Shown one piece after another: positions 17,004 through 36,349 of a stretch of DNA of 64,000 nt. Under the pieces are notes generated by a model that saw nothing but the letters and a program-made list of their open reading frames with translations, was not told the origin of the DNA and did no database searches. A program made the position numbers and the translations under genes. The DNA lies in contig CAJWRJ010000001.1 of the NCBI GenBank assembly GCA_913046215.1, positions 72,897-136,896 on the forward strand, in the 5' to 3' direction. Each line of letters opens with the position of its first letter. The first letter of the stretch is position 1. The DNA comes from an uncultured Legionellales bacterium (lineage in GTDB: Bacteria; Pseudomonadota; Gammaproteobacteria; Eutrophobiales; Eutrophobiaceae).

Positions 17004-17635
17004 TGTTTATAACTAGAGATTTGGGTAAAAAGGATTATTTGGAAACATATCAAATGATGCGTGATTTTACCTTTAAGCGTGATACTTACACAAACGATGA
17101 AATATGGTTAGTAGAGCATTTTCCAGTTTATACTCTTGGGTATTCAAAAAAAAAGGAACACGTGCTCCATGTTAAAAATATCTCAATAATTGAAACTGAT
17201 CGAGGCGGGCAGGTAACTTATCATGGACCTGGTCAGCTAGTTGTTTATCTATTGGTAGATTTAAAAAGACAATCCTACAAAGTAAAGAAACTGGTCTCGC
17301 TAATAGAGGAATCAGTAATCAGTTATTTACAAGAATGTGGAGTAGAGGCTAGAAAAAAACATAATACACCAGGAGTTTTTGTGGAAAATTCAAAGATATC
17401 TGCTTTGGGGCTGCGAGTGAAAAAAAATTGCACATATCATGGTTTTTCACTTAATGTGAATATGGATCTGTCACCATTCAAAGACATTAATCCATGCGGA
17501 ATACAAAATATGCCAGTTACACAATTAATTAATTTTAATGAAAATATAACTATTGAAATTGTAAAAAAAGATCTTTTAAGTCATCTAATAAAAAACTTGG
17601 AAGAAACTTCAAAATACAACCGAAAAGTCGCATAG
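17003..17635 (+). CDS. lipB: octanoyltransferase
   Basis: 210 aa with TDRGGQVTYHGPGQLVVY and ALGLRV...HGFSLNV. Confidence 0.9.
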   Translation: MFITRDLGKKDYLETYQMMRDFTFKRDTYTNDEIWLVEHFPVYTLGYSKKKEHVLHVKNISIIETDRGGQVTYHGPGQLVVYLLVDLKRQSYKVKKLVSLIEESVISYLQECGVEARKKHNTPGVFVENSKISALGLRVKKNCTYHGFSLNVNMDLSPFKDINPCGIQNMPVTQLINFNENITIEIVKKDLLSHLIKNLEETSKYNRKVA

Positions 17636-17647
17636 AAAAATTGAAAT

Positions 17648-18601: not shown

Positions 18602-18607
18602 TGAGCG

Positions 18608-19456
18608 TTATTTTGCGTTTAAAAAAAGTAGCGGCTCAACAGTTGTGTTATTTAGATAGACACTCCAATGGAGATGTGCGCCCGTAGAGCGGCCTGTTGA
18701 ACCAACAGTACCAATCAGGTCATTTGTATTCACATGTGCACCCTCTGCAACGTTTATCTCATTGAGATGACAATACATTGTGATTAACCCCTGTCCATGA
18801 TCTAAGAACACCGTCTTACCATTAAAAAAGTAATTACCAGTATTTATCACAATGCCAGCTGCTGGCGCTGTAACCGGAGTGCCCTCTGCTGCTGCGATAT
18901 CAATCCCACCATGTGGATTTCGAGGCTGGTTATTGAAGAACCGGCGGAGTCCAAATGCACTACTATAAGGACCTACCGTAGGTTTTTGGAACTTTAGTGG
19001 AATGCTATTAATTTCTCTCCAGCTATTTTTCACATTTTTTATTAATTTTATTTCTTTTGTAATTCGTTCCATATCTTCTTTATTTGGATTTACTTTACGT
19101 TTGTTTTTAATAGTCAGGTATTGAGCTTCATATTTTTTGTCTAATATTTCAAAAAAATAATTAGACTCAGCCCCATTATTAATCACTTTTAATTTATGTT
19201 CTCCGATTTCTATTTTTAATGGTATCCCGATAATTGCTTTCCAATTATTACTGCTGCCTATAATCATAACTTTACGTTTATAGAAAAATGCCTCCGGTTT
19301 ATCATCAGTTTGAATAGATATTATTACTATTCCACCGGGCACATTCGATTCTATTGGTAATTTATCTGCAAAAACCAAATTTATTGGAATTACTAAGATT
19401 AATACTAGATATAATATTAATTTATTTTTCATAGATTTTTTCCACAATTGAGTCAA
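18608..19456 (-). CDS. M23 family metallopeptidase
   Basis: 282 aa with a signal peptide and the LytM motifs HGGIDIAAAEGTPV...GSTGRSTGAHLHW. Confidence 0.85.
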   Translation of the reverse strand: MTQLWKKSMKNKLILYLVLILVIPINLVFADKLPIESNVPGGIVIISIQTDDKPEAFFYKRKVMIIGSSNNWKAIIGIPLKIEIGEHKLKVINNGAESNYFFEILDKKYEAQYLTIKNKRKVNPNKEDMERITKEIKLIKNVKNSWREINSIPLKFQKPTVGPYSSAFGLRRFFNNQPRNPHGGIDIAAAEGTPVTAPAAGIVINTGNYFFNGKTVFLDHGQGLITMYCHLNEINVAEGAHVNTNDLIGTVGSTGRSTGAHLHWSVYLNNTTVEPLLFLNAK

Positions 19457-20801
19457 TTTCAGATTCTGCCAGCTTCACATGTAATTTTTTACCAATCTTT
19501 AGCTTATCAGAATTTTTCACAATTTTATTAGTATTGTAATCGGTCACAATTGCGTAACCTCGCTCTAACGTTGCAGTTGGACTAATCGACGTTAGTATAC
19601 TTTTTATACTCATTATTTCACTGTTCTTTTGTTTTAGAATCGACCTAATTGTACCAATAAATCTGAAATGCAAGTTGTTAACATGTGATAGCTGTTGCGC
19701 AACAATATATACAGGATTTAGTTTTGTTAACCGATTTTCTATTTTTGTTAGAGTTATTTTTTTTGATGATATGTTTTTTTCAAAATGATGTTTAAGACGG
19801 ATTGAGTGTTCATCAATTCTTTGCATGAGTTCAATTAATTTTCTATCAGGCCGCGGTAAATTTTTAAACAAAATTTCAATAGATTTTTTATAATTTTTAA
19901 TAATTTGTTTTTGAAAACGCACTAATTGTTTTTCGCGAATTTCAAGTTCTTGCCGAAGCTCATCAATATTTGGACTAACCAGCTCTGCTGCCGCAGAAGG
20001 GGTCGGGGCTCTTAAATCAGCAACAAAATCTGTGATTGTAAAATCAATTTCATGACCTATCCCGCTAACTATTGGCGTATCAATACTAAATATTGCCCGT
20101 GCTACAATTTCTTCATTAAATGCCCACAGGTCTTCCAGTGAGCCACCACCTCGTGCGATTATCAACACATCACACTCCTTTCTTTTTTCAGCAACTTTTA
20201 TTTTATTGGCAATCATTTTTGCAGCTTCATCACCCTGAACCGAAACAGGGTAGATAATCAGGTCACAAAGTGGATATCGGCGTTTTAGTACAGTTAAAAT
20301 ATCTCGAATAGCTGCTCCCGTTTCGGAAGTGATCACTCCTATTGTTTTAGCATACTTCGGAATAGCTTTTTTATGTTTTTCATCAAATAAACCCTCGCTG
20401 GAAAGCTTTTGTTTTAGAGCGTCGAATGCAATTTGTAGTGCCCCAGCACCAGCTGGTTCAATTTGTTGAATGATGAGCTGGTATTCACCTCGGCCTTCAT
20501 AGAGACCAACATTTGCTTTTGCGAGCACCTTCATTCCATTGTCTATATCAAATCGTAAATTGGCATGTCTGTTTTTGAAAAAAGCGCATCTTATTTGGGC
20601 TTCATTATCCTTCATGGTGAAATAAAAATGTCCTGAGCCGGGCTTTGCCAAATTTGATATTTCTCCTTCAATCCAGATTGAGGGATATACCTCTTCTAGC
20701 AAATACCGCACCTCGCGATTGAGACGGGAAATCGTGTAGATATCCTCTTCTGGAGCTGGAAATGTATTTTTTGATCTAATTTCTGCCATTTTTAACTTCA
20801 A
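19422..20801 (-). CDS. xseA: exodeoxyribonuclease VII large subunit
   Basis: 459 aa. N-terminal OB-fold segment (YTISRLNREVRYLLEEVYPSIWIEGEISNL...HFYFTMKD) matches XseA. Confidence 0.9.
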   Translation of the reverse strand: MKLKMAEIRSKNTFPAPEEDIYTISRLNREVRYLLEEVYPSIWIEGEISNLAKPGSGHFYFTMKDNEAQIRCAFFKNRHANLRFDIDNGMKVLAKANVGLYEGRGEYQLIIQQIEPAGAGALQIAFDALKQKLSSEGLFDEKHKKAIPKYAKTIGVITSETGAAIRDILTVLKRRYPLCDLIIYPVSVQGDEAAKMIANKIKVAEKRKECDVLIIARGGGSLEDLWAFNEEIVARAIFSIDTPIVSGIGHEIDFTITDFVADLRAPTPSAAAELVSPNIDELRQELEIREKQLVRFQKQIIKNYKKSIEILFKNLPRPDRKLIELMQRIDEHSIRLKHHFEKNISSKKITLTKIENRLTKLNPVYIVAQQLSHVNNLHFRFIGTIRSILKQKNSEIMSIKSILTSISPTATLERGYAIVTDYNTNKIVKNSDKLKIGKKLHVKLAESEIDSIVEKIYEK

Positions 20802-20899
20802 AACCTATGAAAATTTAAAAATAATCAAAGACGGACTTGCCGTTGTCAAAGTTCGGACTATAATGCACGGCTATTTTAAATCCAACGCAGGGTGCTGTC

Positions 20900-22360
20900 A
20901 TGAAAATAACGGAAGAAGCCCTAACTTTTGATGATGTTCTATTAGTCCCTGATTATTCAGAGATCCTCCCTCGCCAGGCGTCGTTGCAGACACAGTTAAC
21001 TCGGGACATAAAAATGAACATACCCCTTGTTTCTGCGGCAATGGACACCGTTACCGAATCGGAATTAGCTATCGCATTAGCCCAAGAAGGCGGTGTCGGT
21101 ATTATCCATAAAAATATGGATCCAGAGCTTCAGGCAAAGAATGTTCGTCGTGTTAAAAAATATGAGAGTGGCATCATTCAAGAACCCGTTACAGTAGGAC
21201 CATATACAAGCATACAAGAAGTAATTGATTTGACGAGACAAAAAAATATCTCCGGTGTTCCTGTGGTAGATGGAGATGAGCTTGTTGGTATTGTTACAAG
21301 CAGGGACCTGCGTTTTGAAGAAAAACCAGATGATCCTGTTAGAAACATTATGACTAGAAAGGAATCTTTGGTTACCGTAGAGGAGCACGCGACTAAAGAA
21401 GAGGTCCGCGCTCTTTTACATAAACATCGCATAGAAAAAATATTGGTGGTCAATAACAAATTTCAGTTAGCCGGTTTAATTACAGTGAAGGATATGCAAA
21501 AAGCTTCTGAGTATCCAAACGCATGTTTAGATGATGCCGAACAGCTAAGAGTAGGTGCGGCAGTTGGTGTAGGAGAAATAGCAAGGAAACGAGCTGCACT
21601 CCTTGTTGAGTCTAACGTTGATGTTATTGTTGTTGATACAGCACACGGTCATTCAAAGGGTGTGTTAGATATGGTGAAGTGGATAAAGACGAATTTTAAG
21701 GAGACGCAAGTTATTGGAGGCAATATTGCAACAGCAGATGCGGCATTGGCATTAGTAAAAGCAGGTGCTGATGCTGTTAAAGTTGGTATAGGCCCCGGTT
21801 CAATTTGTACGACACGAGTTATAAGCGGTGTGGGCATGCCACAAATCTCCGCAGTCACAAATGTTGCCAAGGCTTTAAAAAACAAAGGTATTCCCGTCAT
21901 ATCTGATGGCGGCGTTCGTTATTCGGGGGATTTAGCAAAGGGCTTAGCAGCAGGCGCAAATAGTATGATGGTCGGCGGATTATTTGCGGGCACTGAGGAA
22001 GCACCGGGTGAAGTTGAGCTTTATCAAGGACGGTCCTATAAAACGTATCGAGGAATGGGTTCGCTTGGGGCAATGGCTGAAAAATACGGCTCATCAGATC
22101 GTTATTTTCAAGAGAATGATGAGGTTGAAAAACTTATACCAGAGGGTATTGAAGGTCGCGTACCATATAAAGGTGCGCTAGAAGCAGTTGTTCATCAACT
22201 ATGTGGTGGCATCAGAGCTGCGTTAGGTTATACAGGATGCTTGGATTTAAAAGAAATGAGGGATAAGGCAAAATTTGTACGATTAACAAGCGCAGGATTT
22301 AAAGAAAGTCATGTGCACGATGTTGCCATTACCAAGGAGCCACCTAATTACCGTTTGTAG
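20900..22360 (+). CDS. guaB: IMP dehydrogenase
   Basis: 486 aa with a CBS pair and the catalytic loop [12 protein letters not shown]. Confidence 0.96.
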
Positions 22361-22410
22361 ATCTCAATAGTATTAATTAGGCGCAATCAATTTATTGCGG
22401 AGAGAAAAAT

Positions 22411-22872
22411 ATGAGAATCACTATATACCTAATGTTACTTTTCTTTACATTACCTCTTATCTCAGAGGAAAGAAAACATGGCGGCAAGGCAATCAAAGTA
22501 ATGGTTGAAGCGGGGACTAAAGATGGCAAGATGATATTCACACCAAATGACTTTACATTCGAACGCGGTAAGCACTACAAGCTTATTATATCAAACCCAA
22601 GTCCCAGTGCGCATTACTTTAGCGTCGATGAATTTGCAACCCACATCTATACCCGTAAGATTGAAGTTGTTGGTCCGAATGGTAAAGCACTAGCTGAAAT
22701 TTACGGCGATGTTCATGATGTTGAGGTATTTCCTAACTCAACTATTGAATGGTATTTTTATCCTATGAAAAAAGGTAAAAATTTAAAATTGTATTGTCAC
22801 AAAGAAAATCATGAAGAAATGGGCATGGTTGGTACAGTTAATATTATTGGGTCATTACCTTTGAGTAAATAA
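22411..22872 (+). CDS. secreted cupredoxin-like (type-1 blue copper) protein
   Basis: 153 aa. Signal peptide, a candidate first His ligand (PSPSAHYFSV) and a C-terminal YCHKENHEEMGMVGTVNIIG that resembles the Cys-His-Met ligand loop and GMVGKVTV tail of plastocyanin/azurin. Confidence 0.5.
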   Translation: MRITIYLMLLFFTLPLISEERKHGGKAIKVMVEAGTKDGKMIFTPNDFTFERGKHYKLIISNPSPSAHYFSVDEFATHIYTRKIEVVGPNGKALAEIYGDVHDVEVFPNSTIEWYFYPMKKGKNLKLYCHKENHEEMGMVGTVNIIGSLPLSK

Positions 22873-22906
22873 TCAGAGAGAATTTTATATAAAAAAATTT
22901 TATTAA

Positions 22907-24481
22907 ATGACAGACATTCATTCCGAAAGAATACTAATTCTTGATTTTGGTTCTCAATATACTCAATTGATAGCAAGACGTGTTCGCGAAGCGGGTGTCT
23001 ACAGTGAGATTCATTCCTACGAGATTGATGATCAAAAAATAAAAGATTTTAAACCCAGTGCAATCATTCTCTCAGGCGGCCCAGAATCGGTTACCTCTCT
23101 CAATGGCTTTCGTGCACCTAAACTAGTCTTTGATATCGACGTACCTGTTTTGGGAATCTGTTATGGCATGCAGACCATGGCTGAGCAGTTGGGTGGAAAA
23201 GTTGCTAACTCTAATTTAAGAGAATTTGGTTACGCGCAGATCAGAGCTCGTGGCCATTCAGATCTGTTGAAAGATATTCAGGATGAGACTAATAGTGAAG
23301 GCCATGGCCTACTAAATGTATGGATGAGTCATGGTGATCAGGTTGAGTCCCTACCCGAGGGTTTTAAATCTATTGCTTCCACTGACAATACATCAATTGC
23401 CGCAATGGCGGATGAGACTCGTAAATTTTATGGCTTGCAATTCCATCCTGAAGTTACCCACACCACACAAGGCTCCAAAATATTAGAACGCTTTATACAT
23501 CAAATTGCTGGCTGCCAATCGTTATGGACAACTGAGAAGATTATCGAGAGGTCTATTGCACAAGTAAAAAAACAAGTAGGAAACGACAGAGTACTCTTGG
23601 CCTTGTCGGGTGGCGTTGATTCATCTGTTGTTGCTGCACTACTACACAAAGCAATTGGCAAGCAATTGACTTGTGTATTTGTTGACAATGGATTACTGAG
23701 ACTGAATGAAGCCGATCAGGTGATGGAAACCTTTGCCAAACACATGGGAATACACGTTATTCGTGTTGATGCTGAGGCACGTTTTTTGAAAGCACTAAAA
23801 GGAATTAGTGACCCTGAGAAGAAACGTAAAGTTATTGGTGTTGAGTTCATCAAAGTTTTTGAAGAGCAGGCAAAAAGTCTTGAGGGTATAAATTGGTTAG
23901 CACAAGGTACTATTTATCCGGACGTCATTGAATCAGCGGGTGCCGAAACCGGTAAGGCGCACGTGATTAAATCACATCATAATGTTGGTGGATTACCCGA
24001 CACTATGAAAATGGAGTTAGTTGAGCCACTGCGTGAATTATTTAAAGATGAGGTCCGAAAAATAGGTATAGAACTTGGTTTACCCAAATCACTTGTCTGT
24101 CGCCATCCTTTTCCGGGCCCAGGCTTGGGCGTTAGAATTTTAGGCGAAGTTAAAAAAGATTATGCCGATTTATTACGTCTTGCAGATAACATCTATATTG
24201 AGGAACTCAGAGCACATGATTTATATGATGATGTGAGTCAGGCCTTTTCGGTCTTCTTACCGGTTCGTTCAGTTGGCGTAATGGGCGATACTCGAAAATA
24301 TGATTATGTTATTGCACTTCGTGCCGTTCAGACTATTGATTTTATGACAGCACACTGGGCACACTTACCCTATCAGTTTCTAGAAAAAGTTTCTAATCGC
24401 ATTATTAATGAGGTGGAAGGAATATCTAGGGTAACTTATGATATTTCAGGTAAACCACCAGCAACGATTGAGTGGGAGTAA
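22907..24481 (+). CDS. guaA: GMP synthase (glutamine-hydrolysing)
   Basis: 524 aa with a GATase domain (GICYGMQ), the PP-loop SGGVDSSV and a C-terminal dimerisation domain. Confidence 0.96.
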
Positions 24482-24488
24482 CACAAAA

Positions 24489-24719
24489 TTATCTATTATC
24501 TAAACGGTCGAGTACAGCATATATCGTTTTATATATCACATAGTATATAAAGAAAAAATTTATAATTGGAATAATAGACAATAATACCCATAAAAATTTA
24601 TTTGTACCCAAACGCATAGCCAGGAAATAATTACCAATTGCAAATAATATTCCGAAGAAACCCCAAAATATAAAAATCGGCAATATACCAGCAACCAACA
24701 TTGCTTCATCTGCACTCAT
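24489..24719 (-). CDS. small membrane protein (2 TM), hypothetical
   Basis: 76 aa. Two hydrophobic helices; no recognisable motif. Confidence 0.3.
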   Translation of the reverse strand: MSADEAMLVAGILPIFIFWGFFGILFAIGNYFLAMRLGTNKFLWVLLSIIPIINFFFIYYVIYKTIYAVLDRLDNR

Positions 24720-24805
24720 ATACTTCCTCCCCGATAAGTTATTGCGTATTATTCTACATATAGACTGCTAAAAAAAATAGGCGAAGAATCGATTTCATTA
24801 ATAAA

Positions 24806-25267
24806 ATGATTACTGATGAAGAATGGATGCAGCAAGCTTTCCAGTTAGCAAAGAAATCTGAGGGGCAGGGTGAGGTGCCAGTAGGCGCAATTATTGTGTA
24901 TCAAAATGAGATTATTGGTAAAGGATGGAACCAACCTATCTTGTTACATGATCCGACAGCACATGCCGAGATAATTGCGCTTAGAGAAGCAGGAAGGAAG
25001 ATGCATAATTACCGTCTTTTAGGGTCTACCATGTATGTCACACTCGAACCTTGTGCAATGTGCGCTGGGGCTATAGTTCAGGCTCGTATTTCTAGACTTG
25101 TATACGCCGTTGAAGATAAAAAAACGGGCGCATGTGGTAGTGTATTTAATATAGTCCAGACAGAGGAACTCAATCATAGTGTTGAAATAACAAAGGGTAT
25201 TCTAGAGAGAGAATGTCAAACACTAATCAAAAATTTTTTTAAAGAGAAAAGATTAAAGAAATTATGA
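24806..25267 (+). CDS. tadA: tRNA adenosine(34) deaminase
   Basis: 153 aa with the zinc motifs HAEIIALRE and TLEPCAMCAGA. Confidence 0.92.
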   Translation: MITDEEWMQQAFQLAKKSEGQGEVPVGAIIVYQNEIIGKGWNQPILLHDPTAHAEIIALREAGRKMHNYRLLGSTMYVTLEPCAMCAGAIVQARISRLVYAVEDKKTGACGSVFNIVQTEELNHSVEITKGILERECQTLIKNFFKEKRLKKL

Positions 25268-25761
25268 CAAGCCCAATCGAAATTTTAGTTAGTCAACTAG
25301 CTGAACGTTTTATAAAAACTTCTATGAAACTGGTTGTTGCTGAGTCATGCACTGGAGGCGGATTAGGAGAGAATCTTACCCGCTTCCCAGGAAGTTCATC
25401 TTGGTTTGATTCTGGTTTTATTGCCTATTCAAATCAATCAAAACAGGATTTATTATCTGTATCCAGTAAAACAATAGACGAGTTTGGTGCGGTCAGTGAG
25501 GAGGTCGCACTGGAGATGGCAAGAGGTGCGCTTGAAAAAAGTACAGCAGACTATAGTGTTTCAATTACAGGTATCGCGGGACCTGATGGCGGAACTGATG
25601 ACAAACCAGTAGGTACGGTTTGTATTGCTTGGTACGAGAAAAGTATGGGTGGAAATACCACACGTATTAATTTTAGTGGAGATAGAATCAGGATCAGAGA
25701 TCAAGCCTGTATGCTAGCTATGCAGGGGTTACTTGATATTTTACAGAAAGCATCAGATTAG
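25264..25761 (+). CDS. pncC: CinA C-terminal domain protein / NMN amidohydrolase
   Basis: 165 aa with VVAESCTGGGLGENLT...SITGIAGPDGG. Overlaps tadA by 4 nt. Confidence 0.85.
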   Translation: MTSPIEILVSQLAERFIKTSMKLVVAESCTGGGLGENLTRFPGSSSWFDSGFIAYSNQSKQDLLSVSSKTIDEFGAVSEEVALEMARGALEKSTADYSVSITGIAGPDGGTDDKPVGTVCIAWYEKSMGGNTTRINFSGDRIRIRDQACMLAMQGLLDILQKASD

Positions 25762-26030
25762 TTTTTTTTCTTTCCCCAGCGCCATTTGACGCCTCCCTTA
25801 ACTCTATCCTTAACCAAAATAAAATAAACTATGTGAATAATTGTAAAATCGATAATAAAACGTAACCAATCTTTAATTGCCTGATCTGTCGTTTTGTATT
25901 CAAAGGGATCACTCAAATAGAATGCAGCACAAATCAGTGCAAGCGCAGTAAGAATGATTACCCATCCTTGCCAAGATGATGGATAAAAGCCGCTACCAAA
26001 ATTTTTAGGCGTAAACCAAAACTCTTTCAT
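25758..26030 (-). CDS. small membrane protein, hypothetical
   Basis: 90 aa with two TM helices and a basic C-terminus. Confidence 0.35.
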   Translation of the reverse strand: MKEFWFTPKNFGSGFYPSSWQGWVIILTALALICAAFYLSDPFEYKTTDQAIKDWLRFIIDFTIIHIVYFILVKDRVKGGVKWRWGKKKN

Positions 26031-26063
26031 TTCTTTTTCTCTCCTAATTGTCCAAATAATAAT

Positions 26064-26960
26064 CTAATCAAAAGCCCAGCTCGCAAAAGGCTCAATCTCC
26101 CCTCTGTTAACCACTATAAGTTGATATTTATTTGGGTTTAGTGAATGGTCAGCAGTTGTATCAACGGAGAGTTGTTGTAGTAGATAGCCAATTAATGAGC
26201 GTCTTACCTTAATATTAATTAAATTCTTACTATTACTACTATAATCAATAAGTAAACTTTTTTGTTTTTCTTTGTCAAGTTTTGGATGGGGTGCGAGTTC
26301 TAATGATATAATCTCTACCCAGTCATCATCATAGAGTTCATTTGATTCCGCTGCATCATTGAGACATTTTGCATTTGCAAAACGAGATAGCACAAAATCT
26401 CTAAAATCAAATGTTTCTTCAGAGTAGGCGCGTACGTGCCAACGAAAACCAGTGTTAACAAGTGAATGAGGCTCAATAATTCTTTTTGATGGTTGTTCTT
26501 TTTCAGTGAGTGAATGATAACTTACCTTTAACTTTCTTTTGTTACATATCGACCGCGTAATTTGTGAAAGCACATTCTTTTTAGGTAGTCGACTTGGGAG
26601 TGTTAATGAAAAAGCAGGTATACCAAAGATAGAGTCATTCATATTTTGCGAATTTGAAATTATAAAATTAGATTCAAATATTGGCAGGGCTGAGGCCGGA
26701 GATAAGTCGGCGACGACCTCCTCGAATGAATCACTCGGCACAAAGCCAAACACGCTGTGCTTGTAGATAAGATTATCAGGTGCTAGCTCACTGTATAATT
26801 TCAAATCTTTGGTAGCAGCTGCATCAGAGATTGCAAACGCTCTTGCCACATCACTACGCGTGATCAATCCCGCGTAAAAGGCCATCAGTTCAATATACTG
26901 GAGACGTTGCAGAGTTACCCACTTGATTTCATCTATCGCTGTTCTTCGTTTTGTCATCAT
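26064..26960 (-). CDS. HTH + WYL-domain transcriptional regulator (PafBC/DriD/BrxR-like architecture)
   Basis: 298 aa. N-terminal helix-turn-helix (LMAFYAGLITRSDVARAFAISDAAATKDL), a central WYL-type segment (KLKVSYHSLTEKEQPSKRIIEPHSLVNTGFRWHVRAYSEETFDFRDFVLSRF) and a C-terminal extension. Transcribed divergently from recA. Confidence 0.6.
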   Translation of the reverse strand: MMTKRRTAIDEIKWVTLQRLQYIELMAFYAGLITRSDVARAFAISDAAATKDLKLYSELAPDNLIYKHSVFGFVPSDSFEEVVADLSPASALPIFESNFIISNSQNMNDSIFGIPAFSLTLPSRLPKKNVLSQITRSICNKRKLKVSYHSLTEKEQPSKRIIEPHSLVNTGFRWHVRAYSEETFDFRDFVLSRFANAKCLNDAAESNELYDDDWVEIISLELAPHPKLDKEKQKSLLIDYSSNSKNLINIKVRRSLIGYLLQQLSVDTTADHSLNPNKYQLIVVNRGEIEPFASWAFD

Positions 26961-27054
26961 TCAATCCCCGGAAACACATAGAATTATACAAAAATTCCCA
27001 TAAAACATAGTAAAATATACGATATGGTAAAAAATATAAAGGTCATAAAAAGTA

Positions 27055-27083
27055 TTGACATCTAAAAAAGTATAGCTTATAGT
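27055..27083 (+). promoter_or_regulatory. sigma70-like promoter for recA (TTGACA-17-TATAGT)
   Basis: TTGACA at 27055-27060, a 17-bp spacer and TATAGT at 27078-27083, about 50 bp upstream of the recA ATG. No CTGT-N8-ACAG LexA box is visible nearby. Confidence 0.45.
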
Positions 27084-27130
27084 CGATTTATTATTAACAG
27101 TTTTATTGCTTAAAAGCGGGGAGAATTAAG

Positions 27131-28183
27131 ATGGCAGCAGAATCAGGAGATGACAAAAAAAAGGCTCTCACGATGGCATTAAGCCAAATTGAGAAGCAAT
27201 TCGGCAAGGGTTCAGTAATGAAAATGGGCGACCAACCAATCACCAAAATTGCATCGGTGAGTACCGGCTCCCTAGGCCTTGATATTGCCTTGGGTGCTGG
27301 TGGGTTACCTTATGGACGTGTTGTCGAAGTTTATGGTCCGGAGTCATCAGGTAAGACTACATTAACCTTATCAGCAATTGCCGAAGCACAGCAACAAGGA
27401 AAGACCTGTGCATTTATTGATGCGGAGCATGCACTGGATCCAGTTTATGCGGAGAAGCTCGGTGTTAACATTGACGATCTCTTGGTGTCACAGCCAGATA
27501 CAGGTGAGCAGGCGCTTGAGATTTGTGACATGTTAGTCAGAAGCGGTGCGGTTGAATTAGTGGTGATTGATTCTGTTGCGGCACTTGTACCTCGGGCAGA
27601 AATAGAGGGTGAAATGGGAGATTCGCATATGGGTCTTGCAGCACGTTTGATGTCCCAAGCTTTAAGAAAACTAACTGGAAATATTAAACGTGCAAATTGC
27701 TGTGTGATTTTTATTAACCAGATTCGTATGAAGATAGGTGTGATGTTCGGCAACCCTGAAACAACAACAGGCGGTAATGCATTGAAGTTTTATTCGTCAG
27801 TTCGTTTAGATATCCGCAGAATTGGGGCAATCAAGAAAGGCGAAGAGGTGGTGGGGAATGAGACCCGAGTTAAAGTAGTTAAGAATAAGATCGCGCCGCC
27901 ATTTAAACAGGCTGAATTTGGCATTTTATATAACGAAGGTATTTCTCGCGAGGGAGAGATAGTAGACCTAGGAGTAAAAGAAGGATTGATAGACAAATCC
28001 GGTGCTTGGTATAGCTATAAAGATGACCGAATTGGTCAAGGCAAAGATAATGTCCGGGTCTTCTTAAAAGAAAACCCTGAAATTGCGAGTGAAATAGAAG
28101 AACAGATACGAGCCAAATTATTACCATCTGTTCCTGTAGAGGATATTGCCGAGGAACCTGTTAAAGAAGAGGTGGAGGTCTGA
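27131..28183 (+). CDS. recA: recombinase RecA
   Basis: 350 aa with Walker A (GPESSGKTT) and near-identity to proteobacterial RecA throughout. Confidence 0.98.
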
Positions 28184-28620
28184 GCACAGAACGTCAACAA
28201 GTTTTACAGCGTGCCTGTGATTTCTTAGCTAGAAGGGAGCATGCTCGGGATGAATTATCGAATAAACTTGCCCGAGCATGCGATGATCAGGCGCTTATTG
28301 AGGAGCTTCTGGACAAACTATCAAGCGAGGGCCTGCAAAGCGATAAACGATTTGCCGAGAGCTTTGTTAATCATCGGATTAATAGCGGAAAAGGCCCACT
28401 TAAAATTCAGCTGGAATTACACCAACGCGGAATTGATAAGTCTCTGATACGGCAGTATCTCGAATCTGATTCCATAAACTGGCTTTCACACGCTGAAACG
28501 GCCAGAGTTAAAAGGTTTGGCGAAAAACCTCCAATTAACTCTACCGACAGGTTAAAACAATCAAAATTCTTACTTAACAGGGGTTTTAGCAGTCAACTAA
28601 TCACCGAACTTTTGTCATAA
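28180..28620 (+). CDS. recX: recombination regulator RecX (start codon non-canonical or unresolved)
   Basis: Frame-1 ORF open from 28165 to the TAA at 28618-28620. It translates ...[32 protein letters not shown]...[25 protein letters not shown]...[22 protein letters not shown], aligning with the RecX three-repeat fold. There is no in-frame ATG/GTG/TTG; a CTG at 28180 overlaps the recA TGA. The gene is absent from the ORF track. Confidence 0.65.
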
Positions 28621-28630
28621 TTAGGTATTC

Positions 28631-31237
28631 ATGAAAACTAGTAATGACATACGCCAGTCTTTTTTGGAGTTTTTCAAATCAAAAGACCACGAAATTATAT
28701 CGAGTAGCTCACTAGTTCCCTCGAACGATCCGACCTTGTTGTTTACAAATGCGGGCATGGTTCAGTTTAAAGATGTATTCCTAGGGCGTGAAAGTTTGCC
28801 ATATAAACGTGCTGCGTCATCCCAGCGGTGTGTCCGTGCAGGCGGAAAACATAACGATCTAGAGAATGTTGGTTATACCGCGAGGCACCACACATTTTTT
28901 GAAATGCTCGGAAATTTCAGTTTTGGCGATTACTTTAAGAAGGAAGCAATTTCATATGCATGGGTGTATTTGACCGATGTATTAAAAATTCCAGAATCCA
29001 AACTCTGGGTAACAGTTTTTGAGGATGATGATGATGCTGCTAATATTTGGTTAAAAGAAATTGGTATCTCATCTAAGCAGTTTAGTCGTTGCGGAGAAAA
29101 AGATAATTTTTGGTCAGTAGGCGACACCGGTCCATGTGGTCCTTGTAGTGAAATTTTTTATGATCATGGTAAAGAGATACCCGGCGGACCACCTGGCTCA
29201 AAAGATGCCGAACTGGACCGCTATGTTGAAATATGGAATTTAGTATTTACTCAATACAATCGTAATTCTGATGGCTCATTAACACCAATTCCTCACCCTT
29301 CAGTTGATACCGGAATGGGTCTTGAAAGAATTACTGCCGTTATGCAAGGGGTGCACAATAATTTTGAGATTGAGTTATTCAAAAAAATCATCAGTAAGAT
29401 TCATAGTTTTTGCAATACCAAGCAGATTGATATCGTATCAAGTCGTGTTGTGGCAGATCATATTCGTTCTTGTTCCTTTTTGTTAGCGGATGGCGTTATT
29501 CCATCTAATGAGGGTCGTGGTTATGTTTTAAGACGAATAATTCGAAGAGCAATTCGTCATGGTAATAAATTAGGATTGAAGGAACCATTCTTTTACAAAT
29601 TAGTTGAGGTGCTTGAGAATCAAATGGCGCAAGCCTATCCCGAGCTATCAAAATCAAAAACGAATATTGAGAGTGTCTTACTTAATGAAGAAGAGCGTTT
29701 TGCCGAAACGCTCGATCAGGGGTTGAAAATTCTGGATGATATTATTGCAAAGATAAAAGGCGATGAAATTCAAGGTGAAGATGTTTTTCGTTTATATGAT
29801 ACATACGGTTTCCCGGTTGATCTGACCGCAGATATAGCTCGTGAAAAAAACCTTAAGGTTGATATGAAAGGTTTTAATAAAGCGATGGCTGGGCAACGAC
29901 AACGCGCACGTGCAGCAAGTAAATTTGATGCTGATGTTGCGGTTAATACCGATACTAATTTAGTTAGTGCATTTACAGGTTATGAGAGATTTGAACAAAA
30001 AACATCAATAATTGGTCTCTATCAAGATGGTAGAAATGTAAAATCATTAAATGAAGGCGATATTGGCGGAGTTATTTTGCTAGAGACACCATTTTATGCG
30101 CAATCCGGAGGACAAGTTGGCGACAGAGGAGAGTTATTTGCAGGCGATGTTTTCTTTGAAGTTGAGGATACAAAAAAACAAGGACAATCTCATATTCATT
30201 TAGGTGTGTTACGAACCGGAACTCTCAAGGTAGGCGATGTTGTGCGTGCTGTTGTTGATCAAAAGAGACGACACGATATAGCGCGTAATCATTCTGCCAC
30301 GCATTTACTGCATGCCGCATTACGAAAAATTTTAGGAGCACATGTTCTTCAGAAGGGGTCGTTAGTTGAGAGTAATCGATTAAGATTTGATTTCTCACAT
30401 AATGATGCGCTTGATACTAACCAGATTAAAGAAATACAGAGATTAGTAAACACAAAGATATTAGATAATGACGAAACTCAAGTTCAAGTCATGCCGCTTG
30501 AAAAAGCAAAATCATCTGGAGCTATATCGTTATTTGGTGAAAAGTATGAGGATGTTGTGCGTGTTTTGAATATTGGCGGTGAGTTTTCATGTGAGTTATG
30601 TGGCGGGACGCACGTCGAACGTACGGGCGATATTGGCGCATTTAAAATCACTTCAGAATCAGGCATTGCATCTGGAGTAAGGCGCATTGAAGCAACCACA
30701 GGCATAGGCGCACTCGATTGGATTGAGAGTACCGAAGATAAGTTGCAGCGAATAGCAAAACTTTTGAAATCGGATACAGAAACCGTTGATTCCAAACTAA
30801 CCGCACAACTTGAAAAAAATCGTAAACTTGAAAAGGAACTACTAGATCTTAAAAGCAAGCTAACGAGTTCAGCGGGTTCAGATTTAATTCAAAATGCTGA
30901 AGTTATAGATGGTATAAGTATTATTGCGAGATCCCTTGATAATACCGATCCAAAAAATCTTCGTGATGCTGTTGACCAACTAAAAAATAAATTAGGGACA
31001 GCTGTTTTGGTTCTAGCGACAGTCAATGATTCTAAGGTTAGTTTGGTTGCAGGAGTAACCAATGATACAACAAGTCGAATTAAGGCCGGTGAACTGGCAA
31101 ATTTTGTCGCCGAGCAGGTTGGTGGTAAAGGGGGAGGTCGCCCTGATATGGCTCAGGCGGGAGGAGATAATCCAAAGGAGCTTGAAAGTGCTCTAGCAAA
31201 AGTTCCGCAATGGGTTCGTGATCAGCTAGAAAGTTAA
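28631..31237 (+). CDS. alaS: alanine--tRNA ligase
   Basis: 868 aa with class-II motifs (FTNAGMVQFK), the editing domain HSATHLLHAALRKILG and a C-terminal DHHA1 domain. Confidence 0.97.
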   Translation: MKTSNDIRQSFLEFFKSKDHEIISSSSLVPSNDPTLLFTNAGMVQFKDVFLGRESLPYKRAASSQRCVRAGGKHNDLENVGYTARHHTFFEMLGNFSFGDYFKKEAISYAWVYLTDVLKIPESKLWVTVFEDDDDAANIWLKEIGISSKQFSRCGEKDNFWSVGDTGPCGPCSEIFYDHGKEIPGGPPGSKDAELDRYVEIWNLVFTQYNRNSDGSLTPIPHPSVDTGMGLERITAVMQGVHNNFEIELFKKIISKIHSFCNTKQIDIVSSRVVADHIRSCSFLLADGVIPSNEGRGYVLRRIIRRAIRHGNKLGLKEPFFYKLVEVLENQMAQAYPELSKSKTNIESVLLNEEERFAETLDQGLKILDDIIAKIKGDEIQGEDVFRLYDTYGFPVDLTADIAREKNLKVDMKGFNKAMAGQRQRARAASKFDADVAVNTDTNLVSAFTGYERFEQKTSIIGLYQDGRNVKSLNEGDIGGVILLETPFYAQSGGQVGDRGELFAGDVFFEVEDTKKQGQSHIHLGVLRTGTLKVGDVVRAVVDQKRRHDIARNHSATHLLHAALRKILGAHVLQKGSLVESNRLRFDFSHNDALDTNQIKEIQRLVNTKILDNDETQVQVMPLEKAKSSGAISLFGEKYEDVVRVLNIGGEFSCELCGGTHVERTGDIGAFKITSESGIASGVRRIEATTGIGALDWIESTEDKLQRIAKLLKSDTETVDSKLTAQLEKNRKLEKELLDLKSKLTSSAGSDLIQNAEVIDGISIIARSLDNTDPKNLRDAVDQLKNKLGTAVLVLATVNDSKVSLVAGVTNDTTSRIKAGELANFVAEQVGGKGGGRPDMAQAGGDNPKELESALAKVPQWVRDQLES

Positions 31238-31300
31238 ATTGTTTATATCCAATATCTTTTAGTTAAGCTAGAATCGCACGCTTTTTAACATAGAAAAATA

Positions 31301-32518
31301 ATGGCACTTATAGTACAAAAATATGGCGGCACTTCTGTTGGCACTGTCGAGAAAATTCAACTTGTCGCGGAAAAAATAATTGAGACCAAGAAAGAAGGTC
31401 ATCAAGTTGTAGTGGTTGTTTCAGCAATGAGTGGAGAGACTAATCGCCTGCTAGCTCTTGCTAAAAATATCTCATCATCTCCAGATAACAGAGAACTCGA
31501 TGTGCTTTTATCAACCGGAGAGCAAGTTACCATCGCATTATTAAGTATGGCGCTTAAAGAAAAAGGTTTTGATGCGATTTCCTATACAGGCGGTCAGATT
31601 TCAATTCAAACAGATAGCGCACATAGTAAAGCCAGGATTAATAATATTGAGGTGGGACGGGTTCAAAGAGAGCTGGAGGATGGAAGAATAGTTGTCATAG
31701 CAGGATTTCAGGGAGTTGATGAGCACGGAAATATTACAACATTAGGGCGAGGAGGCTCTGACACAACAGCTGTTGCTATGGCTACTGCTTTGAGTGCACA
31801 AGAGTGCAGAATTTATACAGATGTTAATGGCGTTTATACTGCAGATCCAAGGATCGTAGATGATGCAAAAAAATTATCATCAATTACTTATGAAGAAATG
31901 CTTGAAATGGCAAGTCTCGGTTCAAAAGTCTTGCAAACTCGTGCTGTTGAATTTGCTGGAAAATATAATATTAATTTGCGCGTACTATCAAGTTTTGAAG
32001 AGGGTTCAGGAACATTAATAACTAATGAGGAAGAAATAATGGAAGCGGCCTTAATATCTGGAATTGCACATAATACTGATGAAGCAAAATTAACCGTTAT
32101 CGGTGTGCCTGATAAACCTGGCGTTGCATCTTTGATTCTCACACCAATAGCAGAAGCAAATATTGAAGTCGATATGATAGTTCAAAATGTTGGTGTAAAT
32201 AACAGCACAGATTTTACCTTTACTGTTCATCGAAATGATTATGATAAAGCAATGTCAATCTTGAAGAGGACTGCAAAGGAGATAAATGCAGCAGATGTAA
32301 TAGGCGATGATAAAATTGTAAAAATCTCCGTCGTAGGTGTTGGTATGCGATCACATGCAGGTGTTGCACGCACTATATTCAAAGTATTAGCGGATGAAAA
32401 AATAAATATTCAGATGATTTCAACCTCCGAAATTAAGGTTTCTGTTGTTGTCGATGAAAAGCATTTGGAATCAGGAGTCCGTACTTTACACATGGCATTT
32501 GGTTTAGGAAAAGTGTAA
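31301..32518 (+). CDS. lysC: aspartate kinase (monofunctional, ACT-domain)
   Basis: 405 aa with KYGGTSVG...VVVVSAMSGETNRL and two C-terminal ACT domains. Confidence 0.92.
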   Translation: MALIVQKYGGTSVGTVEKIQLVAEKIIETKKEGHQVVVVVSAMSGETNRLLALAKNISSSPDNRELDVLLSTGEQVTIALLSMALKEKGFDAISYTGGQISIQTDSAHSKARINNIEVGRVQRELEDGRIVVIAGFQGVDEHGNITTLGRGGSDTTAVAMATALSAQECRIYTDVNGVYTADPRIVDDAKKLSSITYEEMLEMASLGSKVLQTRAVEFAGKYNINLRVLSSFEEGSGTLITNEEEIMEAALISGIAHNTDEAKLTVIGVPDKPGVASLILTPIAEANIEVDMIVQNVGVNNSTDFTFTVHRNDYDKAMSILKRTAKEINAADVIGDDKIVKISVVGVGMRSHAGVARTIFKVLADEKINIQMISTSEIKVSVVVDEKHLESGVRTLHMAFGLGKV

Positions 32519-32590
32519 TGTAAGAACTCAGTTGTTAGTTTAATTTATTAGGAAATAAAGATATTCAAGGAAACACAAGGAGGATGGGTT

Positions 32591-32791
32591 ATGTTGATAC
32601 TAACACGACGAGAAGGAGAATCGCTGATGATCGGCGATAATGTTGAAGTTACCGTTCTAGGTATTCGTGGCCACCAAGTTCGTATAGGAATAAATGCCCC
32701 CAAAGATGTCTCTGTCCATCGTGAGGAGATTTATGACCGAATTCAAGGTGAGAAATCTGAGGAGACAGTTACACCAGATTTATCAGGATAA
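32591..32791 (+). CDS. csrA: carbon storage regulator CsrA
   Basis: 66 aa, [48 protein letters not shown]. The upstream leader contains GGA repeats (AAGGAAACACAAGGAGGATGGG). Confidence 0.95.
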
Positions 32792-32809
32792 ATAGGAGTT
32801 TTCTCTTTT

Positions 32810-32901
32810 GGAGAGGTGGCCGAGTGGCTGAAGGCGCTCCCCTGCTAAGGGAGTATACGGTTTATCCCGTATCGAGGGTTCGAATCCCTCCCTCTCCGCC
32901 A
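32810..32901 (+). tRNA. tRNA-Ser (anticodon GCT)
   Basis: GGAGAGGTGGCCGAGTGGCTGAAGGCGCTCCCCTGCTAAGGGAG...long variable arm...GGTTCGAATCCCTCCCTCTCCGCCA. Cloverleaf with a 7-bp acceptor stem, GCT anticodon and encoded CCA. Confidence 0.9.
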
Positions 32902-33034
32902 AAAAACAGATTCTAAAATCGAGATTCAGCCTCAATTGTCAAGGTTCATTTCAGGACAGCCAATATTTTACACTTAAAAAACTGTCCTAATTATAGGTAT
33001 AATTGACTCATATACTACGAAAGTGCCAATAATA

Positions 33035-34390
33035 ATGAAAAAAAAATATAAAAACTTTCATATTTTTGTCGGGCTGTTACTTGTGTTAAAAGTATCAATC
33101 ACCACAGCTGAAACATTACCTCAGTATGGCAAAGATATGCATCTAGGAGTACAAACTTGCTCAGGATCAACATGTCATGGTGCCGTTCAACCATGGCAGA
33201 ATTCATCTGTGCTTCAGAATGAAGCAATTACTTGGAAAAAATATGATCATCATGCTCGTGCTTTTAAGACATTAGCAAGCGAGCGTTCAAAACGTATTGC
33301 AAAAAATTTGGGAATAGAAAACCCGCAGAAAGATAATGTGTGTTTAAACTGTCATGCAAATAATGTTCCCAAAGAAAAACGTGCTAAAAATTTCATGATA
33401 AGTGATGGTGTTACCTGCGAAGCATGCCATGGAGGTGCAGAAAAATGGCTAGGCATTCATGTTTCCGGAGTGGGTGGACGTGAAGAAAATATTAAAGCTG
33501 GGCAGTACCCAACCGAGGAGCCTTTAGCTAGAGCAAAACTTTGTTTAAGTTGTCATTATGGTACTGAAAATAAATTTCTTACACATAGAATAATGGGTGC
33601 AGGCCATCCAAGGTTAGCTTTTGAACTTGACACATATACTGCGACACAACCAGCACATTACAAAGTTGATGCAGATTATAGACAAAGGAAAAGATGGAGC
33701 AATGGTGTTAGAACATGGGCAATCGGACAGGCAGTTGCTGTCGAAGAAACCTTAAATGCGTTGACAGATAAAAATAGAAATCGCCAAGGTATTTTTCCTG
33801 AACTTGTATTCTTCGATTGCCATGCTTGTCACCACCCTATGTCTAATCTTCGCTGGGAGCGAAGAGATAGTGTAGGTCTTGATCCTGGAATTCCAAAACT
33901 AAATGACGCAAACATTGTAATGTTGCGAGTAATTTCTTCTGTAGTTGATCCAGAACTTGGTAAGCGTATAGAAGAAGAGACTAAACGGTTACATCAAGCA
34001 TCAATGAAAGGCGGTGATGCAACGTTTGAAGCCGCGGATGTTTTGAGATCAACCTTAAAAGGCGTTGTTCAAAAGATTAGTAAACATACTTTTAATCAAA
34101 AAGAAATGGAAAAAATACTTAATGCGCTCTTAGAGTTTGGATTTCATGGTGAATATGTTAATTACATAGCAGCTGAACAGGCTACTTACTCAATTGGTAG
34201 CGTCATCGAGGCTATGAAAGATAGTGGAATGATAAGAGGGAAGGCGATTGAAAAAGTTAAAAAAGCAATGGACATGGCCTACGAAGCGGTTAAATCTGAT
34301 GAAAAGTATCGTCCTTCAGAATTTGTCAAAGCAATTGAAAATATAAAAAAATCCGTAAGTCCGGAATTACAGCTTTCAAAAAAACACTAG
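33035..34390 (+). CDS. secreted pentaheme c-type cytochrome (4 CXXCH + 1 CX4CH) with a non-heme alpha-helical C-terminal domain
   Basis: Signal peptide MKKKYKNFHIFVGLLLVLKVSITTAETL. Heme sites CSGSTCH, CLNCH, CEACH, CLSCH and CHACH fall in the first ~270 aa. The remaining ~180 aa are heme-free and predicted helical. Confidence 0.8.
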   Translation: MKKKYKNFHIFVGLLLVLKVSITTAETLPQYGKDMHLGVQTCSGSTCHGAVQPWQNSSVLQNEAITWKKYDHHARAFKTLASERSKRIAKNLGIENPQKDNVCLNCHANNVPKEKRAKNFMISDGVTCEACHGGAEKWLGIHVSGVGGREENIKAGQYPTEEPLARAKLCLSCHYGTENKFLTHRIMGAGHPRLAFELDTYTATQPAHYKVDADYRQRKRWSNGVRTWAIGQAVAVEETLNALTDKNRNRQGIFPELVFFDCHACHHPMSNLRWERRDSVGLDPGIPKLNDANIVMLRVISSVVDPELGKRIEEETKRLHQASMKGGDATFEAADVLRSTLKGVVQKISKHTFNQKEMEKILNALLEFGFHGEYVNYIAAEQATYSIGSVIEAMKDSGMIRGKAIEKVKKAMDMAYEAVKSDEKYRPSEFVKAIENIKKSVSPELQLSKKH

Positions 34391-34516
34391 GTGATTAGCC
34401 AAAATCTGGACAAAATTACGACCTAAATTATCATCAAGTGTTTTATAGAATAATATTATTAGATAGTGTATTTTTTCAGTATGAGATTAGAAAAATCACC
34501 GAATGTAAGTCAATAT

Positions 34517-36349
34517 ATGGTATTTCCAAAAAAGACACTTTTTTTACTCGTAGGCATTATTTTTTTCAGTGTCTCAAGTGCTAATGAACCTATTATAGAT
34601 CAAGACCTAAAATTACCCGATAATTATCAATCTCAGTGGGAGAAAGTTGCTGGTGATTCTGAACCCGTAATGCCAGGCGGGGGAGACGGATTAGATCCAC
34701 ATCTTAAAATATTACAACAATCGAAATATCCATCAGCTGCACTTTGTGGAAGATGTCACCAGCGTATTTTTACTGAGTGGGCTTCATCAAACCATGCTTA
34801 TGCATCAATTTCGCCAATGTTTCACAAGTTTGAGCAAGCGGTCAATGCATTGACGTCTGGCACGATGGGTACTTTTTGCGTGCGTTGTCATCAACAAGTC
34901 GGTACTCAAGTCGGAGAAACTCGCGAAGCACCTCTTTGGGAACGTTCACAAGTTGCTAGAGAAGGTATCACATGCATTACTTGCCATAGAGTTAATCAAG
35001 CGTTTGGAAAAGTAAATGGCGAGCGTCACATACAGCCAGGGACTATTTACGAACCAGTATATAATACTGGCGATGCGCCAGGTGTTGCAGAGGTGATATC
35101 TGAACGTGATTATTATAAAGTTGCAACGAATCCTGACGAGGAAGGCTTCCCGATACACGGCGGCGCTCAAGTTTTCGAGACAATTGGAGAGTCTGAGTTT
35201 TGTGTTTCATGCCATCAGGTCGCAGTTAATTTAGGAATTAAGTTAGAAGTTGTATGGGAACAGTACCGTGATAGTCCTGCGCATGCGAAGGGCGTGACTT
35301 GTCAAGAGTGTCATATGGGCAAGATTCCGGGAGAAGCAAAAGGCTATGATACTGGACCTGTTGCTATAGTTAATGGACGCGTTGTTGGAGATCCAAATCG
35401 TAAACATTCAAATCATGCATTTTACGGACCCGGTTATCCAATTGCTCACCCTGGTTTATTTCCATTTAATGTGCGTTCATTGAAATGGTCTGTAAAAGAG
35501 TGGCTGACATTTAATTATCGAAAGCCATGGGGTAAGCCTGATTGGGAGGATAAGCTCGAACAAGGATTGGTGGAAAAACCAGAATTTCCTGAAATATGGT
35601 CGACTAGACAGGCACGAGAAGAAGCTAGATACATAATTGGCCAGAACAATAAATTGCTCGAGAATAAAAAGCTAGATCGTTTAGCTGTAATGGAAAATGG
35701 AAGCCGTATTGATGGACCATTTTTTGATAATGGTAAACCAGAAATGGGAAAAGATTTAAAATTTCGTTATCGAATTACAAATGTTGATGAGGGACACAAT
35801 CTTCCATCTGGTTCTTTAGGCGCACAACCAGAAATCTGGCTCAATGTCGTACTCACAGATCCTGATGGCGAACGTGTATTTGAATCAGGATATGTTGACA
35901 AGTACGGAGATATGGTTGATTTACATTCGTTAGAGTTGGCCGAGGGCACAATAGAACACGATGATCAACTTTTTAATCTACAAACAAAATTTTTGACAAC
36001 CAATATTAAAGGTACTGATCGCGAGATGTATCTGCCTGTTAATTTCGATATAGATCAACTCCCATTTTTAAGACCTGCCCCACAACCAACGACTGTCATG
36101 AATCATCCACCTTTCGTGAGAATGGAGGGTCGTTCAATACCACCTTTAGCTTACCGTGATGCTAAATATAAAGTCTCCGGTGATTTAATAAAAAAATCTG
36201 GCACATATAAATTACAAGTAAGAATGCGAAGTCGTGCGGAACCAATTTATTTTATGAAATTTGTTGGTGCAACACTTGATATGGAAAAAAGAATTAATGA
36301 CTGGATGATTGATATTCATCCATACTCAGTCGATTTTGATATCAATTAA
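34517..36349 (+). CDS. secreted pentaheme c-type cytochrome with a ~300-aa non-heme C-terminal domain
   Basis: Likely start MVFPKKTLFLLVGIIFFSVSSANEP (signal peptide). Heme sites CGRCH, CVRCH, CITCH, CVSCH and CQECH. The track ORF begins at 34466. Confidence 0.8.
   Translation: MVFPKKTLFLLVGIIFFSVSSANEPIIDQDLKLPDNYQSQWEKVAGDSEPVMPGGGDGLDPHLKILQQSKYPSAALCGRCHQRIFTEWASSNHAYASISPMFHKFEQAVNALTSGTMGTFCVRCHQQVGTQVGETREAPLWERSQVAREGITCITCHRVNQAFGKVNGERHIQPGTIYEPVYNTGDAPGVAEVISERDYYKVATNPDEEGFPIHGGAQVFETIGESEFCVSCHQVAVNLGIKLEVVWEQYRDSPAHAKGVTCQECHMGKIPGEAKGYDTGPVAIVNGRVVGDPNRKHSNHAFYGPGYPIAHPGLFPFNVRSLKWSVKEWLTFNYRKPWGKPDWEDKLEQGLVEKPEFPEIWSTRQAREEARYIIGQNNKLLENKKLDRLAVMENGSRIDGPFFDNGKPEMGKDLKFRYRITNVDEGHNLPSGSLGAQPEIWLNVVLTDPDGERVFESGYVDKYGDMVDLHSLELAEGTIEHDDQLFNLQTKFLTTNIKGTDREMYLPVNFDIDQLPFLRPAPQPTTVMNHPPFVRMEGRSIPPLAYRDAKYKVSGDLIKKSGTYKLQVRMRSRAEPIYFMKFVGATLDMEKRINDWMIDIHPYSVDFDIN

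Follow-up and report, generated by a model that had tools for sequence, protein, structure and literature searches.

What controls recA in a genome where the recA promoter carries no LexA box? In the window (the whole 64-kb stretch of DNA analysed here, from a marine bacterium), recA and a gene for a WYL-domain protein diverge from one short intergenic region, and an earlier note had suggested from this arrangement that recA may be under WYL-type rather than LexA-type control. The arrangement itself, a 298-aa WYL protein divergent from recA over 170 bp, is borne out by the open reading frame coordinates and by the Pfam WYL and TIGR02012 matches.

26064..26960, minus strand: WYL regulator gene, 298 aa (open reading frame; Pfam WYL, 1.5e-13; homology to BrxR/CapW)
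26961..27130, no strand: divergent intergenic region common to the WYL gene and recA, 170 bp (open reading frame coordinates)
27131..28183, plus strand: recA, the presumed regulated gene (TIGR02012, 3.7e-173)

The family of the regulator

To which branch of the WYL regulators does this protein belong? The precomputed Pfam annotation of an identical protein gives WHD_BrxR, WYL and BrxR_CTD, in the order wHTH-WYL-WCX. A profile built from the WYL protein and 13 homologs finds its best structural match in BrxR 7t8k (4e-44, residues 15-295); the E. fergusonii BrxR homolog 7qfz (2e-42) and three CapW structures, 7tb5, 7tb6 and 9c5g (about 1e-37), are matched over their full length. With the same profile the match to PafBC is confined to the WYL domain (3e-5), and no DriD chain was matched at E values up to 1. 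In place of the canonical WYL motif the protein has RWHVR at R173-R177 (context FRWHVRAY), and this motif is invariant in A1, an alignment of 14 sequences comprising recA-linked homologs and the WYL protein of the window. RWHVR is the hallmark motif of the CapW/BrxR repressor group according to Blankenchip and Corbett (PMC11662680), and the four residues with which R. leguminosarum CapW contacts ssDNA are S144, R164, R168 and R184 (PMC11662680). In the R. leguminosarum structure (9c5g) these align to S150, R173, R177 and R193 of the WYL protein, and all four of these predicted ssDNA-contact residues are invariant in the 14 sequences of A1.

Judged by these comparisons, the WYL protein is homologous to BrxR and CapW over its full length and is not PafBC/DriD-like. 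Thus, of the two kinds of relative named in the earlier note, the BrxR/CapW repressors stand (7t8k at 4e-44, RWHVR), and the PafBC/DriD type of activator, matched in the WYL domain only or not at all, does not. Membership in the BrxR/CapW repressor family makes repression and release, not activation, the likely logic. The DNA specificity should differ from that of Acinetobacter BrxR, because the position of the base-contacting SRQQ of that protein reads SDAA here. An AlphaFold2 monomer model computed from the 14-sequence alignment (pLDDT 53, pTM 0.38) was too poor for use.

We note that one recA-linked homolog, P0124 (loci L090 and L091), has lost RWHVR; it reads SHWYAR instead and has no Pfam WYL match, so that its sensor domain may be degenerate or retuned. 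The recA promoter of these two loci retains the standard motif despite this loss.

Pairing with recA across genomes

Is the neighbourhood of the WYL gene and recA peculiar to the window? A scan of GTDB genomes found relatives of the WYL protein in at least 287 species, of which the best 80 loci were analysed. All 80 come from uncultured MAGs, nearly all of them Gammaproteobacteria, with labels that include Legionellales, Thiotrichaceae, Thiohalomonadaceae, Chromatiales and Arenicellales. In 74 of these best 80 loci the WYL homolog and recA are adjacent and diverge, and two more end at a contig edge yet carry the recA promoter motif. The single clear exception among the 80 is locus L034, where the homolog has neither recA nor the motif alongside; this 64%-identical homolog (4004-4876) lies on a complete 2.1-Mb chromosome amid genes that, from their translations, are pilT/pilU-like and prlC-like. 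The pair also occurs, with the expected geometry, in 41 metagenome contigs, and a divergent recA stands beside homologs of lower identity as well (58, 49, 45, 44, 39 and 38%). It spans genomes of 35-66% GC. Complete chromosomes with the pair include OZ250183.1, OZ244890.1, OZ245888.1, OZ271833.1, OZ245025.1 and OZ220483.1. When the distant homologs were aligned (A2), no stretch proved conserved enough to serve as a scan query, and a metagenome scan with homolog P0125 alone found nothing. Related uncultured species with the divergent pairing thus number well above one hundred, far beyond chance.

The WYL gene has the level of conservation of a core gene: its protein shows 65-71% identity, compared with 56-73% for CinA, 61-71% for TadA and mostly 86-92% for RecA. 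The gap between the WYL gene and recA is held at about 135-255 bp, with the exception of two loci with 340 and 477 bp, whereas on the cinA side variable genes are inserted and the gaps run from 6 to 3800 bp. The WYL gene is usually monocistronic, with a convergent gene downstream whose identity varies widely. In the loci of lower identity the pairing with recA persists despite rearrangement of the outer flanks on both sides.

These data bear on the simplest alternative, that the WYL protein is an ordinary regulator of a BrxR/CapW defence island and lies beside recA by chance. PADLOC and Pfam do place it with the defence-associated WYL regulators, and its nearest outgroups do head BREX and TIR islands: P0134, a 34% homolog, heads brxA-brxB beside an integrase, and P0146 faces a TIR/Nmad2/MazG_C island (a third outgroup homolog, P0133, also has a neighbour other than recA). 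The neighbours in the window and in its relatives, however, are cinA, tadA, thpR-like, recA, recX and alaS, and no defence gene flanks the WYL gene in any of them. Moreover, the gene is usually monocistronic and conserved at the level of a core gene. A rough neighbour-joining tree groups the recA-linked proteins with one another, apart from the bulk of defence-type proteins. We regard a chance neighbourhood as hardly credible. The order pncC-recA-recX-alaS is conserved in other Gammaproteobacteria, and the synteny of the WYL gene and recA could in part be inherited with this block, a point that counts against reading it as a sign of regulation.

The divergent control region

What lies between the two genes? 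The recA promoter, described in the earlier note as near-consensus, agrees with the sigma-70 consensus at 11 of 12 positions and is the only strong sigma-70-like site of the intergenic region. The same note had proposed motif discovery upstream of recA; an alignment of 75 loci and the window, 76 sequences anchored on the -35 box, uncovered a conserved 74-bp operator-like block that lies over the core promoter.

27055..27083, plus strand: recA promoter, -35 TTGACA (27055-27060), 17-bp spacer, -10 TATAGT (27078-27083); 11 of 12 consensus positions
27010..27083, plus strand: conserved 74-bp block (alignment of 76 sequences anchored on the -35 box)
27022..27043, plus strand: candidate operator O1, ATATGGTA-AAAAA-TATAAAGGT, upstream of -35 (18-bp shift, 14 bits)
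27040..27061, plus strand: candidate operator O2, AGGTCATA-AAAAG-TATTGACAT, right half overlapping -35 (BrxR-operator-like layout)
27058..27079, plus strand: candidate operator O3, ACATCTAA-AAAAG-TATAGCTTA, filling the spacer and entering -10 (18-bp repeat, 13 bits)
27005..27019, plus strand: weaker candidate fourth unit, ACATAGTAAAATATA, toward the WYL promoter (17-bp shift)
26983..26988, minus strand: putative WYL-gene -10 box, TATAAT (seen in the anchored alignment)

Conservation within the block is about 1 bit per position, compared with less than 0.2 in the flanks, and the 5' UTRs on either side are unconserved. The consensus reads aTAaAA..tAttA.atagTAAAAAaTA...AGGT.aTAAAAA.TATTGACAT....AAAaGTAT...cTA.a.T, and the stretch TATTGACA was found in 74 of the 76 sequences. 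Within the block lie three or four units in phase, about TAAAAArTATTGAC per 18 bp. Of its internal regularities, direct repetition every 18 bp is the strongest (13-14 bits) and exceeds dyad symmetry. Each unit can be parsed as two half-sites, the second one TATTGAC-like, on either side of a 5-bp A/T spacer. Most loci have AAAAG or AAAAA as this spacer and L092 and L053 have TTTTT, which fits a spacer that is read by its shape and not by its bases. The -10 box itself accounts in part for a pseudo-palindrome whose centre falls between this box and the spacer unit. The fourth unit may serve autoregulation, to judge from its position toward the promoter of the WYL gene. A scan for consensus promoters did not pick up the putative -10 box of that gene; most relatives have ATTATAC or GTATAC at the matching place.

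How specific is this array? The composite motif occurs once in the window, with a PWM score of 82 and a next best of -11, and once per locus in the scan of all loci; the 74-bp block persists as an AT-rich island in genomes of 65-66% GC. No further regulon member was found in the PWM scans of the window and all loci, which matched the recA promoter only. A metagenome scan with the O2 pattern, the central unit GGTNNTAAAAANTATTGACA, returned 120 stretches, 41 with recA and the regulator and about 70 unrelated. The flanking motif is missing from the unrelated stretches, with flank scores of -24 as against +13 to +17. On its own, then, the central unit resembles a generic strong promoter made of an A-tract and a -35 box. 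The full array alone is diagnostic, and the roughly 70 matches away from recA are best read as chance or generic promoters.

Where the homologs are more distant the sites change. Locus L086 (38% homolog, 66% GC) has a perfect palindrome, TCAATA-ATTTT-TATTGA, that spans the recA -35 box, and in L088 (distant homolog, 38-39%) the -35 and -10 boxes of recA enclose a pseudo-palindrome of 21 bp. Palindromes are clear in these two loci, whereas the clade of the window has 18-bp phased direct units with weak dyad symmetry. Within the clade (at least 50% identity) covariation of HTH and operator was not crisp, because both are nearly invariant there. In L086 (1308-1531 and 1532-2698) a dinB-type Y-family polymerase gene follows the regulator. 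Two TATTGA sites lie upstream of this dinB-type gene, and 3.85 kb of the locus hold five TATTGA compared with about 0.4 expected by our estimate, which hints that the regulon of this homolog may extend beyond recA.

We also note that many of the loci L007-L040 have a 7-9-bp hairpin at a matching position of the recA 5' leader, about 35-65 nt past the -35 box. Its stems vary in sequence with the pairing kept (-6 to -11.5 kcal/mol), and it has no match in Rfam. The recA leader of the window has no such hairpin (-2.1 kcal/mol, z 0.64).

Which factor reads the block?

The absence of CTGT-N8-ACAG upstream of recA, as stated in the earlier note, holds: there is no exact copy in the 64-kb window, and of the ten one-mismatch boxes in those 64 kb (14.3 expected) none falls in the recA upstream region. 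Likewise, no LexA box was found in any of the 76 recA upstream regions (75 loci and the window). Over the 760 kb of window and loci together, exact boxes number seven compared with 10 +/- 3.4 expected and are not enriched; one of these perfect boxes, near ssb/lysC in L093, is within chance expectation. A tblastn search with E. coli LexA gave no match in the window and the first 80 loci, which make up a small fraction of any genome. Since the data consist of 64 kb and flanking loci, the statement that control is not of the LexA type is limited to the recA promoter and does not cover the organism. For this promoter the pairing, the conserved block and the empty count of boxes in 76 regions uphold the claim of the earlier note. 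So restricted, the view that recA is under WYL-type rather than canonical LexA-box control is strongly supported by the comparisons above.

LexA motifs differ between clades and are sometimes direct repeats, as in Alphaproteobacteria. One could imagine that the WYL protein regulates only itself or distant targets, and that the block serves recA as a strong promoter whose A-tract is UP-like, or is the site of another factor such as a divergent LexA, with the adjacency of the two genes a matter of inherited synteny. The likeness of the central unit to generic strong promoters in unrelated contigs speaks for this, as do the variability of LexA motifs and L034, which shows that the gene can exist away from recA. 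On the other hand, the conserved AGGT at -14 to -11 and the spacer unit AAAAGTAT are not promoter elements, and no LexA-type motif was found in the recA upstream regions. Insertions are freely accepted downstream of the WYL gene and, two loci apart, are kept out of the gap to recA; the pairing outlasts the rearrangement of both outer flanks; and where the HTH has diverged, in the homologs of 38-39% identity, the sequence overlapping the promoter has changed as well. We consider this alternative unlikely.

The other alternative concerns the sign of regulation. The WYL protein might be an ssDNA-stimulated activator of recA, akin to DriD, DdaA or PafBC, which binds O1 and the fourth unit and recruits RNA polymerase after damage. 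Two repeat units do lie upstream of the -35 box, and every WYL regulator of recA or of the damage response that has been characterised is an activator, a fact that also counts against a repressor here. The sequence of the protein and its RWHVR motif, however, put it in the BrxR/CapW repressor cluster, and its likeness to the activators ends with the WYL domain of PafBC, DriD being unmatched. The motifs of the activators are missing too: an exact CGAC-N7-GTCG box occurs in none of the 76 regions (the best site in the intergenic region of the window has four mismatches of eight), and the RecA-NDp motif has at least two mismatches in all 76. Furthermore, the promoter already agrees with consensus at 11 of 12 positions, and the units in the spacer and at the -10 box sit where an activator would hinder transcription. 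Activation is, in our judgement, quite unlikely.

A model for recA control

In the reading that we favour, the WYL protein would act as a BrxR/CapW-family repressor dedicated to recA, which also controls its own gene and is released by ssDNA, a LexA-like logic built on the scaffold of a defence regulator; we put the probability of this reading at roughly 0.55. In undamaged cells, dimers of the WYL protein would occupy the phased sites over the -35 box, the spacer and the -10 box of the recA promoter, and the occupied sites would also reach toward the divergent promoter of the regulator itself, so that RNA polymerase would be blocked. Upon DNA damage, ssDNA would bind the WYL domain through S150, R173, R177 and R193. 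Binding would splay the wHTH domains and free the protein from DNA in the way shown for CapW, and its release would derepress recA-recX and the regulator gene. Under this model recA is probably controlled by a direct sensor of ssDNA and not by a classical SOS repressor.

Three parts of the model are inferred from sequence: binding of the WYL protein to the 74-bp block, its action as a repressor, and induction by ssDNA. Repression is favoured over activation by the near-consensus hexamers, by the conserved units that lie across the spacer and the -10 box, and by what is known of the family's behaviour. Two further features of the region weigh against the repressor. First, repressors of this family are domain-swapped homodimers with palindromic or pseudo-palindromic operators of about 20-27 bp; a dimer with two-fold symmetry is expected to bind inverted repeats, and the clade of the window has direct repeats. 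Second, the central unit GGTNNTAAAAANTATTGACA is also found in the roughly 70 unrelated metagenome contigs.

Neighbouring genes

28180..28620, plus strand: recX, intact; overlaps the recA stop codon (CTGA)
25758..26030, minus strand: 90-aa predicted membrane protein, 33 bp downstream of the WYL gene (no family match)
41380-43788, minus strand: 802-aa fusion of pyridine-nucleotide-disulphide oxidoreductase, two cyclic-nucleotide-binding and 4Fe-4S dicluster domains

The recX gene of the window is 98% identical in DNA to that of L083. It was absent from the list of open reading frames because it has no ATG, GTG or TTG close to the 5' end. Its frame starts with a CTG overlapping the stop codon of recA, so that its translation may be coupled to that of recA or may use a non-canonical start. 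It is presumably co-transcribed with recA. On the other side, the 90-aa membrane protein is limited to the close clade of the window (L001-L006) and may be a clade-specific partner that is co-transcribed with the WYL gene. Elsewhere in the window, a gene cluster for multihaem cytochromes (33023-40532), one member of which carries an FHA domain, adjoins the 802-aa fusion gene. GC content is uneven, 28-35% at 1-20000 and 50000-64000 and about 40% at 20000-36000, where the guaBA-recA-alaS-lysC core lies.

Comparison with known systems

CapW genes typically lie divergent from the operon that they control. CapW, the CBASS-associated repressor of an adjacent operon, resembles the system proposed here in its predicted logic, a repressor that sits on the promoter and is released by ssDNA after damage. 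The WYL protein shares with it the three-domain architecture, RWHVR and the four ssDNA-contact residues (PDB 7tb5, 7tb6 and 9c5g; PMC11662680). Unlike CapW, the WYL protein has as its partner a housekeeping repair gene, recA, and not an immune operon; its gene is vertically conserved over many species and not patchy; and the candidate operator in the clade of the window is a phased array of direct units and not a single palindrome.

BrxR operators are inverted repeats of two 10-11-bp half-sites with a 5-bp A/T-rich spacer; that of Acinetobacter BrxR overlaps the -35 box, and for E. fergusonii BrxR one good half-site suffices (PMC9122589, PMC9122601). The candidate sites at recA share with those of BrxR (7t8k/7t8l, 7qfz) the half-site, the W5 spacer and a TATTGAC half-site over -35, and the palindromes in the recA promoters of L086 and L088 agree with operators of the BrxR type. 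In contrast to BrxR, the WYL protein has neither BREX nor other defence genes nearby. A large BrxR survey never mentions recA.

DdaA of Moraxellaceae and DriD of Caulobacter are ssDNA-sensing WYL activators that provide LexA-independent control of recA or damage genes through the motif CGAC-N7-GTCG or CGWCA-N5-TGWCG (PMC12392091, PMC13010146, PMC9186387). DdaA has replaced the SOS system in the Moraxellaceae, Gammaproteobacteria that lost LexA, and the papers on DdaA put CapW and BrxR in a separate cluster of anti-phage regulators (PMC12392091, PMC13010146). Like the system proposed here, these are WYL-domain ssDNA sensors that control recA without LexA; they differ in belonging to other phylogenetic clusters, in being activators, in their motif, which is not in the recA regions, and in having no full-length similarity to the WYL protein. 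In the DdaA literature we found no mention of a ddaA gene adjoining recA. Similarly, PafBC of Actinobacteria, a WYL-domain regulator that responds to ssDNA, governs recA via a LexA-independent promoter, but it is a heterodimer that activates through sigma adaptation at promoters without a -35 element, whereas the recA promoter here has a consensus -35 box. Finally, the likeness to LexA and the SOS response lies in a proposed repressor over the recA core promoter that would be relieved by damage and is probably autoregulated, and the differences lie in an unrelated fold and in direct ssDNA sensing instead of self-cleavage stimulated by RecA.

In the literature that we searched, no BrxR/CapW-type regulator is described as a partner of recA. 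WYL control of recA by the activators PafBC and DdaA is already known; what would be new is a repressor-type family tied to a housekeeping repair gene.

Implications

In current reviews the ssDNA-sensing WYL regulators fall into two classes, with PafBC, DriD and DdaA as activators of damage responses and CapW and BrxR as repressors of immune systems. If our reading is true, a repressor-type member locked to recA over hundreds of species would blur this division. It would also constitute a third route by which recA expression is coupled to damage, after LexA and the WYL activators, one in which the signal is ssDNA itself and RecA is not required. More broadly, a large and mostly uncultured marine and sediment radiation of Gammaproteobacteria might have taken recA out of LexA control, perhaps with the loss of LexA, and placed it under a one-component ssDNA-sensing repressor of the BrxR/CapW type; we offer this wider claim tentatively and think it rather doubtful. 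Should it hold, no WYL regulator of a core repair gene would have been of the repressor type before, and the recA-linked family would be an evolutionary bridge between the regulators of phage defence and the response to DNA damage. The place of the nearest outgroups, at the head of BREX and TIR islands, suggests that roles are exchanged between regulators of defence and those of housekeeping damage responses.
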